From assembly GCA_051874955.1 (NCBI GenBank), contig JBJEGJ010000055.1, positions 127,094-191,093 of the forward strand: a stretch of 64,000 nt of DNA, read 5' to 3'. The position numbers were made by a program, and so were the translations under genes. The DNA comes from Candidatus Gastranaerophilaceae bacterium. Lineage in GTDB: Bacteria; Cyanobacteriota; Vampirovibrionia; Gastranaerophilales; Gastranaerophilaceae. Position 1 is the first letter of the stretch. Every line of letters starts with the position of its first letter. Under the pieces are notes generated by a model. It was given only the letters and a program-made list of their open reading frames with translations. It had not been told where the DNA came from and searched no databases. Positions 9,598-54,446 of this stretch are shown here, piece after piece.

Positions 9598-10915
9598 ATA
9601 ATCTGTTCCAAGGATAACTGTAATTTGCGTTTATTTTGGTTTTTAAAATATTATCTGTTTGCTTTTTGAAATATTCCATTTCTTCGGATAATATTTTTAT
9701 ATCAGGGGTTTTTAGTTTTTGGCGTATATTTGCTTGATATGCCCAATCATCTAAAAACCGTACGGCTTCTAAATTTTTGAAAGCCTTTTCATTATAGTTT
9801 TCGGCGAAAAATTTAACTTTTGCTGCACAAATAAGACTTCCGAGAGTATTTGCTGTGGTATTCCAACCCGAATACCCGAAGAAATTTTTATCTTGAATTT
9901 CGTTTTCAAACAACTTTGAAACAAAGTCGTTATCCGCCCCGTTTGCAAATCTTACATCCGCAATCATATATGGTTTATCGGGAGTTACAAATTTTCCGTT
10001 AAAATTTTCTGTCATTATATTCATAACAATTTCTCCCTGATGTTTCTTGAAATTGTTTATATAAAGTAGAATATCTGCATTTTCAGCTTCGCAAACAGTA
10101 CAATTTGCCAGTTCAATTTGATTTTTTACGGAATTTTCAACAGATATATCTTCGTAATTTGATATTAAATTTTTGTAATCAGGTTCTAAAAATATCGCAC
10201 AAATTTTCACATTTCCATTTATAGCGCGAGCAAAAAGTGTCAGCGGAATTTCATCCGCACCTGTTTTTGTAGTTGCTCCGAGTTTTTCAAGCGCTTGTGC
10301 TTCTTGCACATTGAAACCGTATTGTGCACAATCATCTTTGGAAAAAATTAACGTATCGAACAAACCTTCTTTTTGCCATTGTAGATATATTTTGTTTATT
10401 TCAAAATTTCTTTTTCTGGTTATTAAATAATCGTCTAAAATTTCTGACGGGATGATGTTTGCAATACAGCTTTCGCATCCTGTTTTGTGTGATTGGTATG
10501 AGTAATCAAAAATTTTCTTTCCCCATTTTGACCAGTATTCTTTTTCTTCTTCATTGTAATTGTTGTTTGAAATTCTCATTATGCTTGAAAACGCAAAAAT
10601 CTTACTGTTTTTTTCAATGAGAATTTTTTTGAGTTTTTCAATTTTTTCTTTTATTTGTTCAAAAGTTTCGGGGCATCTTCGAGAAGGTATTAAGCCGCCG
10701 TAAGCTAATGTATCAAGCGATAAAATGAGTGCATCCTGCGTCGGCAGTGCTTCCAGCCATTTGAACAGATTGTTTGTATCAGCAGGTTTTGTCAAATCTC
10801 CGAGATATTCACGCGGAGGAATTGAAAATTCAATATTTGTATCTATATTTGCAATCATTTGGGCAAGTGAATAGCAAACAGGTCTGTTATCAATAGGTAT
10901 AAAAGCAATTCTCAT
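9572..10915 (-). CDS. DUF4127-family protein
   Basis: 447 aa. The N-terminus MRIAFIPIDNRPVC is characteristic of that family as I recall it. Function unknown. Confidence 0.6.
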   Translation of the reverse strand: MRIAFIPIDNRPVCYSLAQMIANIDTNIEFSIPPREYLGDLTKPADTNNLFKWLEALPTQDALILSLDTLAYGGLIPSRRCPETFEQIKEKIEKLKKILIEKNSKIFAFSSIMRISNNNYNEEEKEYWSKWGKKIFDYSYQSHKTGCESCIANIIPSEILDDYLITRKRNFEINKIYLQWQKEGLFDTLIFSKDDCAQYGFNVQEAQALEKLGATTKTGADEIPLTLFARAINGNVKICAIFLEPDYKNLISNYEDISVENSVKNQIELANCTVCEAENADILLYINNFKKHQGEIVMNIMTENFNGKFVTPDKPYMIADVRFANGADNDFVSKLFENEIQDKNFFGYSGWNTTANTLGSLICAAKVKFFAENYNEKAFKNLEAVRFLDDWAYQANIRQKLKTPDIKILSEEMEYFKKQTDNILKTKINANYSYPWNRLFEVEIGIN

Positions 10916-27410: not shown

Positions 27411-28427
27411 GTGAAAAAAGAATTTGAGCAATTTGGCATATTGACGGATGATATTTCTGATGAAAATGTTGATTTTAACAAGTTACAGGAGGCAGGGTCT
27501 GTCGAAGATGAAGATGGCGAGGATGTTTTAAAATCCGTTGCGGATCCTAAGGTTCAGGAAAGTTTGTTGTCAGTAAATTCGGATGACAGCGTTAAAATTT
27601 ATTTAAGACAAATCGGCAAAATCCCGTTATTGTCTGCGGAAGAAGAACTTGAGTTAGCAAAACGTATTCAAGATAATCGTGATGAATTTGCAAAAGATGT
27701 TTTGGTGAATGCTAATTTGCGTTTGGTTGTGAGTATTGCAAAAAAATACATTGGCAGAGGTTTATCGTTTTTGGATCTTATTCAAGAAGGCAATGTAGGG
27801 TTAATTAAAGCTGCGGGCAGATTTGATTACAAAAAAGGTTACAAGTTTTCGACTTATGCAACATGGTGGATTCAACAGTCGATAACTCGTGCAATTGCCG
27901 ATAAAGCAAGAATTATACGATTACCTATTCACATGATAGATTCTATCGGAAAAATCAGAAGGGCAACCATTGATTTAACAACAGAACTCGGTCATCCGCC
28001 GACAAAACAAGAAATAGCGTATCGTTTAGGATTTCCTGTATCTAAGCTGACGGCTATTATAAAATCTGCACAGTCGACGGTTAGTATGGATACTCCGGCA
28101 TCAGCAGATGAAGATGCTTCTAAAATTGCCGATTTTATTGTTGATAATTCGACAATAACTCCTGACGGCAAGGTTACTCACGATAATCTTTTAGAAGATA
28201 TAAGACAAATTCTTAACCAATTAAGCCAAAAAGAAAGAGATGTTTTAATTTTGCGTTATGGATTGGATAATAACGGAATGAAAAAAACTTTGGATGAAAT
28301 TGGTTCTCAATATGGTGTTTCGCGTGAAAGAATACGACAAATTGAAAACCGTGCGATTTCTAAGTTGAAAAAACTCTGTAAGGATGAAAAATTACACGAA
28401 GGTTTGATTAATTATTTTGGCGGATAG
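27411..28427 (+). CDS. rpoD: Primary-type sigma-70 factor (RpoD/SigA family)
   Basis: Region 1.2 (VKIYLRQIG), region 2 ([12 protein letters not shown]...[16 protein letters not shown]), region 3, and region 4 ([20 protein letters not shown]). GTG start. Confidence 0.93.
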
Positions 28428-28478: not shown

Positions 28479-28505
28479 TAAAGTTTTTTAATTTTATGCC
28501 GTATA
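28479..28505 (+). promoter_or_regulatory. Sigma-28 (FliA)-type promoter
   Basis: TAAAGTTT (28479-28486), an 11-nt spacer, then GCCGTATA (28498-28505). Established consensus: TAAAGTTT-N11-GCCGATAA. The architecture is the same as at 51798. Confidence 0.6.
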
Positions 28506-49063: not shown

Positions 49064-49109
49064 TTCTGAATAATCTGTGGAATGACTGGCGCGCTAATTT
49101 TTTTTGAAC

Positions 49110-49795
49110 ACTTCTGTCACACTAAACAAGCCGAGCAGAGGATGAAAGCGTAGGCGTATCCGTTTAATGCGAGGCGCGTTTCAGGGTCTCCAAACACATG
49201 TGTCATCCTGAACTTGTTTCAGGATCTTACCGTTGGTGTATTTTGCTATGTTTTTAAAGATCCTGAACAAAACAAAATCTACGCAGTCAAGTACGGTGGG
49301 CAGAAATGAAATAATGCCCACCTATTTATGCAAATAATTTAAATTTGTTGGCACTATTGGTGTATTTTGCTAGGTTTAAAGATCCTGAAATAAATTCAGG
49401 ATGACAAACGCGTTTTATATTTGAGTATTCCATACCATGTCACCCTGAACAAGCCGAGCAGAGTACAAAAAGTCAAACACATGTGTCACCCTGAACTTGT
49501 TTCAGGGTCTAGTCTATTGGTAAAATCTTGCTAAGTTTAAAGATCCTGAAATAAATTCAGGATGACAAACGCGTTATATATTTGTGTATTTCATACCATG
49601 ATACCCTGAATAAGTCGAGCAGAGTACAAAAAGTTAAACACATGTGTCACCCTGAACTAGTTTCAGGGTCTAGCCTATTGGTAAAATCTTGCTAAGTTTA
49701 AAGATCCTGAAATAAATTCAGGATGACATACGCGTTTTACCATAGTACACCCTTTTTTCATGTCATGCTGAACTTGTTTCAGCACCCCTAACAAG
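49110..49795. repeat. Mosaic array of hairpin-containing repeat modules (about 161-bp unit and variants)
   Basis: Unit starts (GATCCTGAAATAAATTCAGGATGAC) lie at 49381, 49542 and 49703. Hairpins GTCA(C/T)CCTGAACTTGTTTCAGG(G/A)TC lie near 49202, 49485 and 49646, with GTCATGCTGAAC..TTCAGCAC at 49762. Confidence 0.9.
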
Positions 49796-49846
49796 TAAGT
49801 CGTCCCGACCTCAAAGCTAAACATTTACAATAACTTATATAGCTAT

Positions 49847-50635
49847 TTATGGGGCATAATTTCCTGTACAATATTTTTTGTTGCCTTTTACGCAACGTAA
49901 ATAATTTAAATTTTTATGTTTAATTACGTATCCTGCACAGGTTGTTCCGCTCCACCAACCGGCACTTCCTTCGTATTCGGGGTTACATCCTTTTTGTTTC
50001 TGCCAGCCAACATCTCCGTATGGAACAATTCCTCTATCAAGGATAGCGAATACAAATAAGTCTTCTCCCCAACGTGGTCTGTTTGTTTTTCCTGTTACAT
50101 TGACCATTATTGTGTGTGGTGTTGCCATTTCTGTGCCGTTGATATAACAACCTCCGTCCCCATTACAATCTCTTGTTTCTGATAAATATGTAGAAAAGCC
50201 ACCGGTGTTGTCAATGTTAATGCGGGTAGTATTTCCGATAATAATATTATATGGAACACTAACATTAGTATTTTTACCTTGTAAATCAAGATGCATTATA
50301 GATTTTTCACATTTGACCTTATCCCCATCGCATACTAAATAGCTTTTTATGTATGGCAGAAACTTCTCCATTATCATTTCTCTTGAAGTATTCTTATCTG
50401 TTGGTAAATTCCAACAGCTTATAGGTCCGTTATCTTCAATAGACATTTTGTATCCTTGACTTAGTATTGAATAAACTTCCAGTAATTTATTAACTATAAC
50501 TTTCTCTTTGTAAGTGTTGAGTAATGTAGGTATTGTTAGTGCTGCAACGATTCCAATTATTCCAATGGTAATAAGAACTTCTGCAAGCGTAAATCCCGTA
50601 TGATTTATTTTGCACTTGTTAAATATATTTATCAT
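49847..50635 (-). CDS. Prepilin-type N-terminal cleavage/methylation domain protein (type IV pilin/pseudopilin-like)
   Basis: Class III signal HTG|FTLAEVLITIGIIGIVAALTIPTL. The C-terminal domain is Cys-rich, with the motif VNVTGKTNRPRWGEDLFVFAI. Confidence 0.8.
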   Translation of the reverse strand: MINIFNKCKINHTGFTLAEVLITIGIIGIVAALTIPTLLNTYKEKVIVNKLLEVYSILSQGYKMSIEDNGPISCWNLPTDKNTSREMIMEKFLPYIKSYLVCDGDKVKCEKSIMHLDLQGKNTNVSVPYNIIIGNTTRINIDNTGGFSTYLSETRDCNGDGGCYINGTEMATPHTIMVNVTGKTNRPRWGEDLFVFAILDRGIVPYGDVGWQKQKGCNPEYEGSAGWWSGTTCAGYVIKHKNLNYLRCVKGNKKYCTGNYAP

Positions 50636-50687
50636 ATATTAAGTTTATTTTATAGTTAAATCATTGTCAAGTTTATAAAATATTGAT

Positions 50688-50900
50688 ATGGATAAGAGAT
50701 TGAAAATATTAGGTTTGAATATAAAATTTGCCAGAATAAAAAAGGGGTTGTCTCAGGAACAGCTTGCTGAGAAGGTAGATTTATCCAGAACGGCAATAAG
50801 TTTTATAGAAACAGCTCGACAAAATCCAACTATTCTTAAAGTAATTGATATTGCTAAAGTTTTAAATGTTGATATAAATGATTTAGTAAGGGATGTTTAG
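50688..50900 (+). CDS. XRE-family helix-turn-helix transcriptional regulator (70 aa)
   Basis: The HTH_3 signature is LSQEQLAEKVDLSRTAISFIETARQNP. Confidence 0.85.
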   Translation: MDKRLKILGLNIKFARIKKGLSQEQLAEKVDLSRTAISFIETARQNPTILKVIDIAKVLNVDINDLVRDV

Positions 50901-51029
50901 TTTTTAGAGTCTGATTTACAAAGCTGACATTTAACATTTTTGTAAGGATAATAACAGCAAGCTGTGTAAGTTCGCTTTACAAAGTTGAGAAAATTTTATA
51001 CCTAGTAAATTAGGAAAACCCTGATCAGA

Positions 51030-51725
51030 CCTCACCCTAACCCTCTCCTATCTTAGGAGAGGGAAGAATAATAGTTAAGTAGTGTAGACTTTAGTCTACC
51101 GATACTAAACCAAAAGATCCTGAAACGAGTTCAGGATGACAAACGCGTTATATATTTGAGTATTTTATACCATGATACCCTGAATAAGTCGAGCAGAGGA
51201 TGAAAGCGTTAGCGTATCCGTTTAATGCGAGGCGCGTTTCAACATCTCCAAACACATGTGTCACCCTGAACTTGTTTCAGGGTCTAGCCTATTGGTAAAA
51301 TCTTGCTAGGTTTAAAGATCCTGAAATAAATTCAGGATGACAAACGCGTTATATATTTGTGTATTTCATACCATGATACCCTGAATAAGTCGAGCAGAGT
51401 ACAAAAAGTTAAACACATGTGTCACCCTGAACTTGTTTCAGGGTCTAGCCGTTGATGTTTTTTGCCATGTTTTTCAAGATCCTGAACAAAACAAAATCTA
51501 CGCAGTCAAGTACGGTGGGCAGAAATGAAATAATGCCCACCTATTTATGCAAATAATTTAAATTTGTTGGCACTATTGGTGTATTTTGCTAGGTTTAAAG
51601 ATCCTGAAATAAATTCAGGATGACAAACGCGTTTTATATTTGTTATAGCCGAGCAAAGCAGGGTAGGCTTTAGTCTACCGCAACAAAACCAAAAGCTTCG
51701 GAAACAAGTTCAGGATGACATGTGG
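51030..51725. repeat. Second mosaic array of the same repeat modules plus other small hairpin repeats
   Basis: Module starts lie at 51116, 51317, 51478 and 51600. Also present are CCTCTCC..GGAGAGG (51044-51063) and GGTAGACTTTAGTCTACC-type hairpins (51084-51101, 51663-51680). Confidence 0.9.
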
Positions 51726-51797
51726 GCAAAACTACTTTGTCTTCTCTCATATCTCAAAAAAAATGTAACGAAATGTTACAATATATGCTTGTTTTTC

Positions 51798-51824
51798 TAA
51801 AGTTTTACCGAAAAATGCCGTAAT
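51798..51824 (+). promoter_or_regulatory. Sigma-28 (FliA)-type promoter
   Basis: TAAAGTTT (51798-51805), an 11-nt spacer, then GCCGTAAT (51817-51824), 48 nt upstream of ATG 51872. Confidence 0.65.
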
Positions 51825-51871
51825 CATGACTAAGCAAAGAATGACTATATGTCGAAAGGATTACGAAAAAA

Positions 51872-53920
51872 ATGGGATTGGCAGCTTCACAAGCTAGATT
51901 TTTATGTATAACGGCAAGAAAAGCTGATTGTGAATACAAATCAACTGAACTGGCTCAGCAAAAGCTTGAGATTACAAATCAGTTGTCAACAATTTCTAAT
52001 GAATACGCCAATGCCATGAATGCAACAAAATTGGTTTGGTCAAATGATGCTGTTGATAGGGATTATGGCTTGACATACAGTCTTATGATGACACCTTCTG
52101 CAATAAATGATTACAATCCTTATATGTTGACATCATCATCAGGCGCAATTATTTTAAATAGTGAATATGCAAACGCTGCGCGTGCTGCCGGTATCTCAAA
52201 AGCAGGCGGTGCAGGTTCGCAAGCTTCACGTGATAAGTTTATTCAAGCATTAGTTCCGGGCGGTATCGTTACGCAAGAAACTGCGGATAATATTACCTCT
52301 AATGATTATCGTGTATCTATTAAAAACAACGAGATAAATATTGTAGAGGGAACTGAAGCTAATGGCGCTATTATGTGGAATCCTGCAGCAGGTATGGGGG
52401 CAGATCCGCTTAATAAATCCATTGTTGATGCAATGAATTTAGTAGACTTGGCTACCAGCGAAAATATCGGTCAACAATTAGTTGACTGGGGACAATTATT
52501 TGTCGGTGAAGGTCAGATTACAACCATTGAGTACGATAGAAATCTTGAGAATTTACAAGATTTGTATAAAGATTCAATTAATAAAAAAATATCAAATGAA
52601 ATAATTTCACAATTGCAAAATGATAAAGCAAGTTTTGAATCAACGCTGGCAAATCCTGAAAAACCTACTACTGAGGAGCAGAAAAAGCTCGATGAGTTTG
52701 ATAAATTGATTTCTAATGCAAAAACTATTTTAGCAGGCAAGGTTTCTGATGACGGATACTTGCTTGATTCTTCAGGAAATAAGACCTCAACTACCTTAGA
52801 TGCTGCCTACACAGCTATATCTGATCAGTTAAAAAATGACTATGAATCCTATAAAACGAAATATACGGATGAGAATGGTAAGCCAAATAATAAGCAAGTC
52901 GGTCTTACAGATAAATTTAATACTAAAGATAATTCTTTAAAAACAGCTACATATTCAATGGTGCAAAATGGCAGTATTAACCATTATTCGTCTGAAATTG
53001 AAGAATTAACAATTGGTGATATTTTAACATCAAATATTGTTTTAATGGCGAACAGTAATATTAGTATGACTGATTTCCAAGAAGATGTTAAAAAATTATT
53101 TGATTCTATTGTAGAGGTTTTAGGGTATTCAACAACCAAAAATTTAAGCGGTACAGGTTTGAATATTGATGATGCCTCAAGACAGGCTTTAGAGTTTGCT
53201 TATAAGATGACATTGCCGTTGTTGAAAAATGATAAATGTCAAACAGGTTCAAGAAAATCCGACAAATCCATGACAGAAAACAGCGCATATATGAATGCTG
53301 AAAAATATAACGGTATTGTTTCTGATGAAGATGAGGGCAAGGGTTATAAAGGTGTCAGCTTGACCAACTTGCTTGCTACATTTTTAACTTATTATGATAA
53401 CGGTTTGAATGGTATAAATTCTAATTACGTTATTGGTGCAACAATTGATACGTCAGATTATGTAACAGACGACTACGGTTATTATTATATGGCACAAAAT
53501 GATTCTGATGCGGTTGTTTCAATGGCAGCAAGAAGTGCCGATTTCTTTGACCAGTTATACAACAATATCTGTGAACACGGTTGGAGAGAAGATGCACAGG
53601 TTGATGATTATGAATATCTTGAAAGCGCGATAAAAGACGGTCGTTACTCAATGAGTTCATTAAATCAAGACGGATATTTTTATCAAACAAGATACAATGA
53701 AACAGGCTATATTATAGAAGAATCAGATACCGATGCAATTGCCCGAGCTGAAGCAGAATTTACTTCTAAAAAGGCAGAGCTGACTTATAAAGAAGATTCA
53801 ATTGATATTAAAACAAAACAACTTGATGCTGAAATATCTTCATTATCAACGGAATATGATACAGTAAAACAGTTGATTTCAAACAGTATTTCAAAAACCT
53901 TCGCATTATTCCAAAACTAA
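51872..53920 (+). CDS. Conserved-termini / variable-core protein (682 aa), MGLAASQAR family; putative filament subunit
   Basis: The first 9 aa are identical to the 36571 product and the C-terminal 32 aa are about 45% identical. The ~570-aa core is N/S/T/D/Y-rich. There is no signal peptide or TM segment. Confidence 0.75.
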   Translation: MGLAASQARFLCITARKADCEYKSTELAQQKLEITNQLSTISNEYANAMNATKLVWSNDAVDRDYGLTYSLMMTPSAINDYNPYMLTSSSGAIILNSEYANAARAAGISKAGGAGSQASRDKFIQALVPGGIVTQETADNITSNDYRVSIKNNEINIVEGTEANGAIMWNPAAGMGADPLNKSIVDAMNLVDLATSENIGQQLVDWGQLFVGEGQITTIEYDRNLENLQDLYKDSINKKISNEIISQLQNDKASFESTLANPEKPTTEEQKKLDEFDKLISNAKTILAGKVSDDGYLLDSSGNKTSTTLDAAYTAISDQLKNDYESYKTKYTDENGKPNNKQVGLTDKFNTKDNSLKTATYSMVQNGSINHYSSEIEELTIGDILTSNIVLMANSNISMTDFQEDVKKLFDSIVEVLGYSTTKNLSGTGLNIDDASRQALEFAYKMTLPLLKNDKCQTGSRKSDKSMTENSAYMNAEKYNGIVSDEDEGKGYKGVSLTNLLATFLTYYDNGLNGINSNYVIGATIDTSDYVTDDYGYYYMAQNDSDAVVSMAARSADFFDQLYNNICEHGWREDAQVDDYEYLESAIKDGRYSMSSLNQDGYFYQTRYNETGYIIEESDTDAIARAEAEFTSKKAELTYKEDSIDIKTKQLDAEISSLSTEYDTVKQLISNSISKTFALFQN

Positions 53921-53924
53921 TTGA

Positions 53925-54446
53925 TTAGTTATTTTGCAGGTATTTGTCGGTAATATTCAATATTGCGGTTTTTAAGGTGTCATAATCTGAATTGTTTTCG
54001 ACTATGTAATCCCAGTCTGTAATGTTATCAAGTCCGGTTTCTGTTATGTCGTCTTCTCCGACAAGTTGTCCTCGTTGCATACGGGTTTGTCTTGTTGCTT
54101 CAATTCTTATTGTTGTTGCGTTGGCTTTTTTAAAGATTTCATATTCATGCGGAACTCGGACATCTGTTATTATGATATTTCCCTCTTGTTCAAGAATTTT
54201 ATTTAACCAGTAATCCGCATCCTGAGCTCGTCCCCAATTGCCAAGTTCAATCAAACCTGCACGATATTTTGCCTTGTTTTGTTCAATTACCTCGTAGGTT
54301 AAATTGTGTTGTTTTCCGTATGTTAATTTTATAATATCGCCAATCGCGCAACGCCTGAAATTTGTTAGTTTTTCAAGCATAATCTTTGCTGCTGTATCCT
54401 TGCCGGAATACTGTTTTCCCGAGAATATAATAATTTTATCAACCAT
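53925..54446 (-). CDS. P-loop kinase, dNMP-kinase / animal-type phosphomevalonate-kinase-like fold
   Basis: The Walker A IIFSGKQYSGKDT resembles the FSGKRKSGKD-type P-loop. 173 aa. Confidence 0.5.
   Translation of the reverse strand: MVDKIIIFSGKQYSGKDTAAKIMLEKLTNFRRCAIGDIIKLTYGKQHNLTYEVIEQNKAKYRAGLIELGNWGRAQDADYWLNKILEQEGNIIITDVRVPHEYEIFKKANATTIRIEATRQTRMQRGQLVGEDDITETGLDNITDWDYIVENNSDYDTLKTAILNITDKYLQNN

Follow-up and report, generated by a model that had tools for sequence, protein, structure and literature searches.

An undescribed, very large protein family of Melainabacteria as candidate cargo or distal component of a reduced flagellar apparatus

Introduction

Buchnera aphidicola possesses basal bodies without flagellin and keeps its reduced flagellar export system as a protein transporter, and Campylobacter jejuni releases FlaC, a secreted flagellin-like non-filament protein that is recognisably homologous to the termini of flagellin. 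The present study concerns a gene at 51872..53920 on the forward strand of a 64,000-nucleotide (nt) stretch from a Candidatus Gastranaerophilaceae bacterium (contig JBJEGJ010000055.1; this whole stretch is called the window below), the product of which is a member of a large protein family that is undescribed and whose occurrence here is almost confined to the Gastranaerophilales (gut Melainabacteria). We propose, with a probability of roughly 0.45, that the flagellar type III export apparatus takes this product as a late substrate, either structural or secreted, and the picture emerging for the family is that of a candidate cargo or distal component of a reduced flagellar apparatus.

Complete flagellar gene sets were reported for only three of nine Gastranaerophilales genomes (Soo et al. 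2014, PMC4040986). Four of the genomes (Zag_221, Zag_1, Zag_111 and MH_37) retain FlgB/C/F/G, FlhA/B and FliE/I/J/P/R, with no annotated FlgD/E/H/I/K/L, FliC/D/F/G/M/N or MotAB (PMC4040986 Table S5). In a 2026 preprint, the share of Gastranaerophilales genomes with a complete flagellar set is given as ~25%, and the genes kept by the remaining genomes, such as flhB, fliI and flgG, are postulated to serve extracellular secretion (bioRxiv 10.64898/2026.04.24.720558). The flagellated Melainabacteria possess canonical flagellins (PMC3787301).

Results

A protein family with fixed ends and diverse cores

The gene is an uninterrupted ATG open reading frame (ORF) for a protein of 682 residues, the coordinates including the stop codon, and its product is referred to as the long paralogue. 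The sole other product in the window beginning with MGLAASQAR is the short paralogue, a protein of 350 amino acids (aa) encoded at 35519..36571 on the reverse strand. In a BLASTP comparison, residues 1-44 of the two proteins align (19/44 identical, 43%, E 3e-9), as do residues 632-680 of the long with residues 300-348 of the short paralogue (16/49 identical, 33%, E 3e-6), and these N-terminal 44 and C-terminal 49 residues are the only parts that they have in common. Local searches with hidden Markov models (HMMs) agree with BLASTP and revealed no third family member in the window; a 110-aa ORF at 28906..29238, considered as a minimal family member, was rejected at an HMM E-value of 0.2.

A profile built from both paralogues retrieved 3,387 clusters at 50% identity (E<=1e-3) among 1.84 billion representatives, 528 of which matched at E<=1e-30. 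Family lengths range from 309 to 1074 aa, and the matches almost always span residue 1 to the last residue, fixed terminal helices being combined with highly diverse cores. For the long paralogue at least 696 database relatives were found, the best 120 of which cover ~100% of the query at 45-93% identity, and a scan of one genome per GTDB species gave 531 loci encoding it, most with record titles that name Gastranaerophilales, Melainabacteria or unclassified gut metagenome-assembled genomes. The short paralogue has 3,671 matches, the best 120 at 58-98% identity and nearly all full-length. Some genomes hold three family members, and in about ten loci the long and short genes lie 1-7 kb apart; no conserved operon partner is seen around either. 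The source databases label relatives of both proteins as hypothetical, Pfam and NCBIfam (both at E<=1) and PHROG gave zero matches for either, a sequence-profile search of the PDB gave coiled-coil noise only, and a literature search on the N-terminal motif found no papers.

The cores of the family contain tandem repeat modules (P0259, P0340) or Thr/Ser/Gly-rich stretches (P0252). In P0376 (1074 aa), residues ~450-800 hold Gly/Asp-rich repeats (GNNNYIDTGDNDDII..., GGGNYIDAGGGNDTIGY) and a GHAYSV segment between the family termini, and the similarity of this protein to calpain (Peptidase_C2) is sub-threshold, with 16.3 bits against a Pfam cut-off of 23.8. By analogy with the enzymatic flagellins, P0376 may be an enzyme-bearing member.

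Between residues 50 and 620 of the long paralogue, N, S, T, D and Y together make up 41% of the residues, compared to a mean of 27.6 +/- 4.5% (maximum 38%) in the remaining window ORFs of >=200 aa. The protein is acidic (101 D+E versus 60 K+R) and Cys-poor, and lacks a signal peptide, a transmembrane segment and a hydrophobic N-terminus, its maximum hydropathy being 1.05 versus 2.45 for the neighbouring pilin. The shared termini and the N/S/T/D/Y-rich core had been remarked upon in an earlier sequence-only reading of this DNA and are borne out here, and the layout of conserved terminal helices around a divergent core is flagellin-like, core diversity being extreme family-wide. That reading also called the long paralogue the longest family member, a label which fits the window and does not extend to the family.

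A conserved sigma-28-type promoter

The gene is preceded by a near-consensus sigma-28 (FliA/SigD)-type promoter at 51798..51824 on the forward strand, with the -35 element TAAAGTTT (51798-51805), an 11-nt spacer and the -10 element GCCGTAAT (51817-51824), the whole beginning 74 nt before the ATG. In E. coli the sigma-28 consensus reads TAAAGTTT-N11-GCCGATAA, and that of SigD in B. subtilis reads TAAA-N15-GCCGATAT. The sigma-28 promoters of E. coli fliC, flgK and fliD, included as positive controls, share the same form. In 56 of 82 family genes TAAA-N14-16-GCCG is present 61-117 nt upstream, and where an orthologue lacks the strict motif, a version differing by one or two bases occupies its place (for instance TCAAGTTT...GCCGTAAA and TAAAGATT...ACCGTATA). 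A sigma-28-type promoter is present before almost all orthologues of the long gene. Counted over 2.96 Mb, comprising both strands of all related loci and the window, TAAAG-N13-15-GCCG[AT] occurs 76 times versus nine times in shuffled sequence, and 61 of the 76 sites are, by our own count, situated directly upstream of family genes. Short-type genes of some other genomes carry the motif as well. Taken together, the long gene is likely to belong to the sigma-28 regulon.

Just upstream of the -35 element, at 51764..51780 on the forward strand, a palindrome (TGTAAC-GAAAT-GTTACA) is found at the same relative position in most orthologues and is a candidate operator for a regulator. The 5' leader (51830..51871, forward strand) is conserved, ends in CGAAAGGATTACG and includes a Shine-Dalgarno GGA at 51858-51860, and in the leaders of many orthologues a second (A)AGGAA motif is present upstream. 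Two GGA motifs in a flagellin-type leader recall the CsrA/FliW control of flagellin translation. A generic promoter and terminator scan performed no better than on shuffled sequences.

Linkage to flagellar export genes

Of 80 related loci, 19 have the fliN-fliO-fliP-fliQ-fliR cluster, confirmed with Pfam and NCBIfam, no more than 10 kb away from the orthologue. The cluster is placed downstream and convergent in 11 loci, downstream on the same strand in five, 2.7 kb upstream in one, and divergent across 199 nt in L063 and L065. In an additional locus (L021), flhB (TIGR00328, E 2.5e-104) and an adjacent gene for a 226-aa sigma factor are located 7 kb upstream of the orthologue, so that linkage to fli/flh genes is seen in 20/80 loci overall and in five arrangements. 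As the linkage has survived several rearrangements, it suggests a functional tie. Two loci connect the family directly to the genomes with reduced flagellar gene sets mentioned above, L001 being a scaffold of Zag_111 and L062 a contig of Zag_221, and both hold the long gene with its sigma-28-type promoter.

In L021 flhB and the sigma factor gene directly behind it occupy 1149-2927. The best NCBIfam match of the encoded protein is FliA/WhiG (E 3e-22; 79 bits, below the cut-off of 189.6 bits), and on this similarity it is a divergent candidate sigma-28 of the Gastranaerophilales. Similarity to the sigma-70 of the window revealed no sigma factors in the related loci, the L021 gene having been found only by way of its neighbour flhB.

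Predicted structure

In an AlphaFold2 (AF2) model of the long paralogue (mean predicted local distance difference test, pLDDT, 80), a long N-terminal helix at residues 2-49 (51875..52018) opens with the family signature MGLAASQAR-x5-ARK-x3-EY and is kept in both paralogues. Such a helix is invariant throughout the family, each member of which also has a conserved C-terminal helix, the cores differing from one subfamily to another. In the long paralogue the N-terminal helix forms part of a conserved alpha/beta N-terminal module (residues 1-140; 51872..52291) with an identity of 73-93% among orthologues. A hypervariable, indel-rich segment (residues 221-360; 52532..52951) is predicted to be mostly helical (218-331) and is followed by a conserved alpha/beta C-terminal core, delimited from the alignment (residues 361-619; 52952..53728), and by a long C-terminal helix (residues 620-681; 53729..53914), the last ~49 residues of which are those common to the short paralogue. 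The C-terminal core contains many invariant D/N/Y/W/G residues, as in HGWRED, DGRYSMSSLN and DGYYYQTRYNETGY, and its invariant D/N/Y/W residues suggest a putative binding or catalytic surface. The sequence-profile search of the PDB and Foldseek searches of the PDB and BFVD returned no enzymatic fold for the protein, and no fold match backs a specific activity of the core. In the model of the short paralogue (pLDDT 88.6), helices at residues 3-46 and 274-348 flank a beta-rich core. Both proteins thus combine conserved terminal helices with a divergent centre, and the design of hypervariable, insert-tolerant centre and conserved terminal helices is that of the flagellins.

Foldseek gave nothing at E<=0.001 for the short paralogue, and its top list consists mostly of flagellar axial proteins (filament, cap, rod and junction), including P. 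aeruginosa FliC, the FliD cap, the FlgG rod and Campylobacter junction proteins, with the flagellar filament 9n59_A as the best match (E 0.012, probability 0.35, TM-score 0.17). With TM-scores of 0.07-0.18 for the flagellar matches, this list is a weak hint towards flagellar axial proteins. A scan of the related loci for canonical flagellin and rod motifs gave nothing. Membership of the long paralogue among the type IV pilins was rejected, as it has no N_methyl (PF07963) match, unlike the neighbouring gene product (49847..50635), which has one.

Conservation and selection

Identity to the window protein was determined region by region in an alignment of 31 orthologous sequences. It amounts to 73-93% in residues 1-140 and 69-92% in residues 561-680, is lower in residues 361-560 (36-68%) and 161-220 (about 50%), and falls to 27% in residues 141-160 and to 16-31%, with indels, in residues 221-360; only the last two segments are strongly variable among the orthologues. 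The closest relative, in locus L081, is 93% identical at the amino acid level, with an overall ratio of nonsynonymous to synonymous substitution rates (dN/dS) of 0.16. Zero nonsynonymous changes separate the two in residues 1-140 and 561-682, dN/dS reaches 0.49 in the most variable segment (221-360), and it is <1 everywhere. The long paralogue is under purifying selection. Since each of the two paralogues represents an old orthologous group that is conserved over its full length, they are ancient paralogues with different cores, each of them conserved, and not swapped cassettes. No orthologue with a frameshift or an interruption was noticed in the related loci that were retrieved; the truncated copies lie at contig ends.

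One orthologue in the alignment, P0018 (803 aa), has three of its segments duplicated exactly within the sequence, namely residues 24-70 or thereabouts and two stretches that lie after residue 110 and near residue 410. The duplications look artefactual, arising from assembly or gene calling, and not biological.

Neighbouring regions

The region upstream of the long gene (49100..51760) is a plastic intergenic region that lies outside the conserved unit of the gene and in which two hairpin arrays surround a pilin/XRE cassette. The hairpin CCTGAA-N5-TTCAGG occurs 11 times in the window versus 0.01 expected, and all copies are confined to 49207-49722 and 51119-51619, flanking a type IV pilin-like gene (49847..50635, reverse strand) and a gene for an XRE regulator (50688..50900, forward strand). 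The hairpins are of the GTCACCCTGAACTTGTTTCAGGGTC and GATCCTGAAATAAATTCAGGATGAC types and belong to a tandemly repeated unit of 161 bp (2.3 copies at 94% match), and a search of the repeat region against Rfam gave only sub-threshold, microRNA-like hairpin noise. Two segments, 49818-51016 with the pilin and XRE genes and 51071-51760 with one repeat array, are absent from L081, the DNA of which is 92-96% identical on both sides of the repeat region and contiguous across both junctions, although the first array is interrupted there by a scaffold gap of 17 N. A mere ~120 nt separate a bioA-like gene from the orthologue behind it in L001 (Zag_111), and the cassette segments are absent there as well. 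No obvious target-site duplication is present at the cassette junction. The pilin and XRE genes have the look of a small cassette, mobile or recombined, that sits within arrays resembling repetitive extragenic palindromes (REP-like), and, since these segments are absent in L081 and L001, the repeat and cassette region is a lineage-specific insertion beside the long gene. Conservation resumes at 51761 and takes in the palindrome and the promoter, gene and promoter being syntenic in L081 at 92% DNA identity. The plasticity stops short of the long gene and its control region.

Downstream of the long gene, and convergent with it, is a phage-type deoxynucleoside monophosphate (dNMP) kinase-like gene (53925-54446, reverse strand; 173 aa). 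In L081 the corresponding gene (10104-10639) is called as two fragments of 109 and 53 aa and may be decaying. In L002 (300-7535) and about 20 other loci, representing 20-23 species-level genomes, a phage-like cluster with small terminase, portal-like and large terminase genes and several unknown ORFs occupies the same position upstream of the orthologue; it may be what is left of a prophage that was domesticated or became fixed long ago.

Directly downstream of the short gene, on the same strand, is a 271-aa Gly/Ser/Thr-rich ORF (34685-35500, reverse strand) that has no match in Pfam, NCBIfam or PHROG. It is kept in a 98%-identical relative (L082), and inspection of more distant loci showed no counterpart beside their short-type genes. 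Just one further strict sigma-28-type motif (TAAAGTTT-N11-GCCGT, 28479-28502) exists in the window. It follows a sigma-70 gene (27411..28427) and precedes two small, helical ORFs on the forward strand (28627..28899, 90 aa; 28906..29238, 110 aa), which have no family match and are both called in L082. These could be small late-regulon proteins; a single such motif in 128 kb (both strands) is within chance expectation.

Discussion

A candidate substrate of the flagellar export apparatus

In the proposed mechanism, the long gene would be part of the flagellar late (sigma-28) regulon, and the flagellar type III apparatus would carry its product, which has no Sec signal, out of the cell. Like those of FlgK, FlgL, FliD and FliC, the terminal helices would function in export, in chaperone binding and/or in assembly by coiled coils. 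The conserved core would come to lie outside the cell, where it would either belong to a structure, for instance to a junction, cap or fibre subunit, or be cargo that is secreted. Assembly into a structure would be an additional step, and it is rather doubtful that the protein polymerises into a fibre. The claim is that the long paralogue works like the axial proteins and not that it is one of them, since membership of the flagellin, FlgK, FlgL or FliD families was not found at the sequence level. A broader and unlikely extension is that the family stands in for the hook-junction, cap and filament proteins, to which it is unrelated in sequence, in a remodelled organelle derived from the flagellum. 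The gate and rod that are retained would then export its members, with sigma-28 in control; the long member would be the junction or cap, the hyperdiverse short ones would provide the exposed subunit, and the 'non-flagellated' Gastranaerophilales would, if this were true, build a new surface fibre or secretion conduit.

Several observations weigh against export by the flagellar apparatus. Flagellin membership (PF00669 / PF00700) was rejected on the basis of no Pfam or NCBIfam match and an hhalign probability of 0.2% versus E. coli FliC, and FlgK, FliD and FlgL membership in the same way (hhalign 0.5%, 0.2% and 0.6%, respectively). Foldseek searches with the long paralogue against the PDB and BFVD gave no match at E<=0.001 (best E 1.9), and the flagellar matches of the short paralogue have TM-scores of 0.07-0.18, which are not significant. 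The linkage counts are phylogenetically non-independent, 60 of the 80 loci have no fli/flh gene within 10 kb, and none is present in the 64-kb window. A FliA-like sigma factor was found in one locus only (L021), below the family cut-off, and none in the window, where the short gene lacks a sigma-28-type motif and has a sigma-70-like TTGACT-N16-TATAAC instead. Flagellated Melainabacteria have canonical flagellins, and the family is not needed to account for their filaments. Moreover, sigma-28 regulons also include cytoplasmic proteins.

The last point leads to the possibility, which we regard as improbable, of a cytoplasmic or membrane-associated coiled-coil protein that belongs to the sigma-28 regulon and is not exported, for example part of the cytoskeleton, or a scaffold associated with the motor, with chemotaxis or with the export gate. 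The absence of a signal peptide, the long amphipathic helices and helical variable region, the lack of a significant fold match to axial proteins and the cytoplasmic members of sigma-28 regulons in model bacteria are all compatible with such a role. It is less easily reconciled with an acidic, Cys-poor and N/S/T/D/Y-rich composition that is unusual among the window ORFs, with an extreme length and core diversity between fixed termini of the kind usual for exposed proteins, and with the repeats, Thr/Ser/Gly stretches and possible calpain-like insert with Gly/Asp-rich repeats in the family, which are typical of extracellular proteins. The protein may also be an extracellular adhesin or enzyme leaving the cell by a non-flagellar route, for example by type I secretion via the C-terminal helix, in which case the promoter would reflect co-regulation only. 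A conserved C-terminus in an acidic protein without Sec signal, the Gly/Asp-rich repeats of one family member and the 60 loci distant from fli/flh genes would fit this explanation. However, genes for an ABC transporter, a membrane-fusion protein or a TolC-type protein were not noticed in the neighbourhoods examined, in which no systematic search for them was made, the N-terminus, invariant from residue 1, would have no role in type I secretion, and type I signals are not normally so conserved; non-flagellar export is thus given little credence. A surface-structure role, as put forward in the sequence-only reading, remains plausible in view of the acidic, extracellular-type composition, the absence of signal peptide and transmembrane segments, and the sigma-28-type promoter.

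The same reading took the core (~590 aa) for a variable insert and envisaged paralogues with exchangeable cores at separate loci, giving antigenic or functional variation by recombination or alternative expression. It was right in placing the gene directly downstream of the hairpin arrays that flank the pilin/XRE cassette, all 11 hairpins being found there, and in regarding the adjacent locus as plastic, as the cassette and one array are missing from L081. The two paralogues do share their termini only, core diversity is large family-wide, and segment 221-360 evolves fastest. Nevertheless, in hundreds of species each paralogue forms an orthologous group of its own that is conserved full-length, chimeric cores did not come to notice in the sequences that were aligned or read, dN/dS stays below 1 throughout, and gene and promoter are retained in synteny in L081 despite a differing cassette. 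Core exchange between loci is thereby already largely contradicted and has become very improbable. The core differs between the two paralogues, as stated, and among the 31 orthologues it varies in residues 141-160 and 221-360 only; the second of these, the most variable, is predicted to be helical and not beta-rich like the D2/D3 domains of flagellin. Neither an enzymatic fold nor, in the related loci retrieved, an interrupted copy, which the reading had named as grounds for abandoning its idea, came to light. What the reading observed is there, but to see a variable insert in it went too far. The least probable of the explanations, to the point of being hardly credible, is a structural protein of a prophage or phage-derived element, such as a fibre or tape-measure-like protein. 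Terminase (small and large) and portal clusters lie 2-10 kb upstream in about 20 related loci, tail proteins are among the weak BFVD matches, and a phage-type dNMP kinase gene is located just downstream in the window. Against this, relatives are present on only 2 of 2.9 million viral contigs, PHROG gives no match, phage genes do not flank the long gene in the window or in L081, a gene for a CNNM transporter separates the phage-like cluster from the orthologue, and the gene has its own conserved sigma-28-type promoter.

Export through the flagellar apparatus, if correct, bears on the function of the export gate, ATPase and rod genes, which according to two genome studies and the 2026 preprint are all that most gut Melainabacteria keep of the flagellum, and for which the family is a concrete candidate for the exported cargo, being kept under purifying selection even in 'non-flagellated' lineages. 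Should the link hold, a new protein family would join the substrate repertoire of flagellar type III export, and the inference of motility and host interaction from these gut genomes would change, the family proteins being without the flagellin regions recognised by TLR5. At the least, several thousand 'hypothetical proteins' could be annotated as one family with a defined promoter.

Comparison with known systems

The family resembles FliC, FlgK, FlgL and FliD in having conserved terminal helices around a variable or insert-tolerant middle, in being acidic and without Sec signal, in its sigma-28-type promoter, in the leader with two GGA motifs of many orthologues, in its linkage to fliNOPQR/flhB in a quarter of the related loci, and in the weak fold matches of the short paralogue, the majority of which are to proteins of this group. 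It differs from them in the lack of sequence homology detectable with Pfam, NCBIfam or hhalign, and its signature (MGLAASQAR...ARK...EY) is unlike flagellin or rod/hook motifs. There is one long helix per end instead of the four-helix arrangement of flagellin D0/D1, the variable segment of the long paralogue is predicted to be helical, and the family persists in genomes without annotated hook, rings or motor.

Like the enzymatic flagellins (flagellinolysin-type), the family accommodates foreign domains and repeats between fixed termini, as in P0259, P0340 and P0376. The inserts are, however, found in the short-type subfamily and not in the long paralogue, and the calpain-like match is sub-threshold. 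FlaC of C. jejuni is similar in that axial-type termini would allow export of a protein that is not the main filament subunit, and a FlaC-like role would fit the co-existence of the family with canonical flagellins in flagellated Melainabacteria. Unlike FlaC, the family has no recognisable homology to the flagellin termini. As to Buchnera, we know of no description there of a dedicated, conserved and sigma-28-driven substrate family with axial-like termini. The koala- and human-gut Gastranaerophilales are comparable to this symbiont in that they keep gate, ATPase and rod genes without annotated hook, filament or motor (PMC4040986). A candidate substrate family exists here and has been retained with its flagellar-type promoter.

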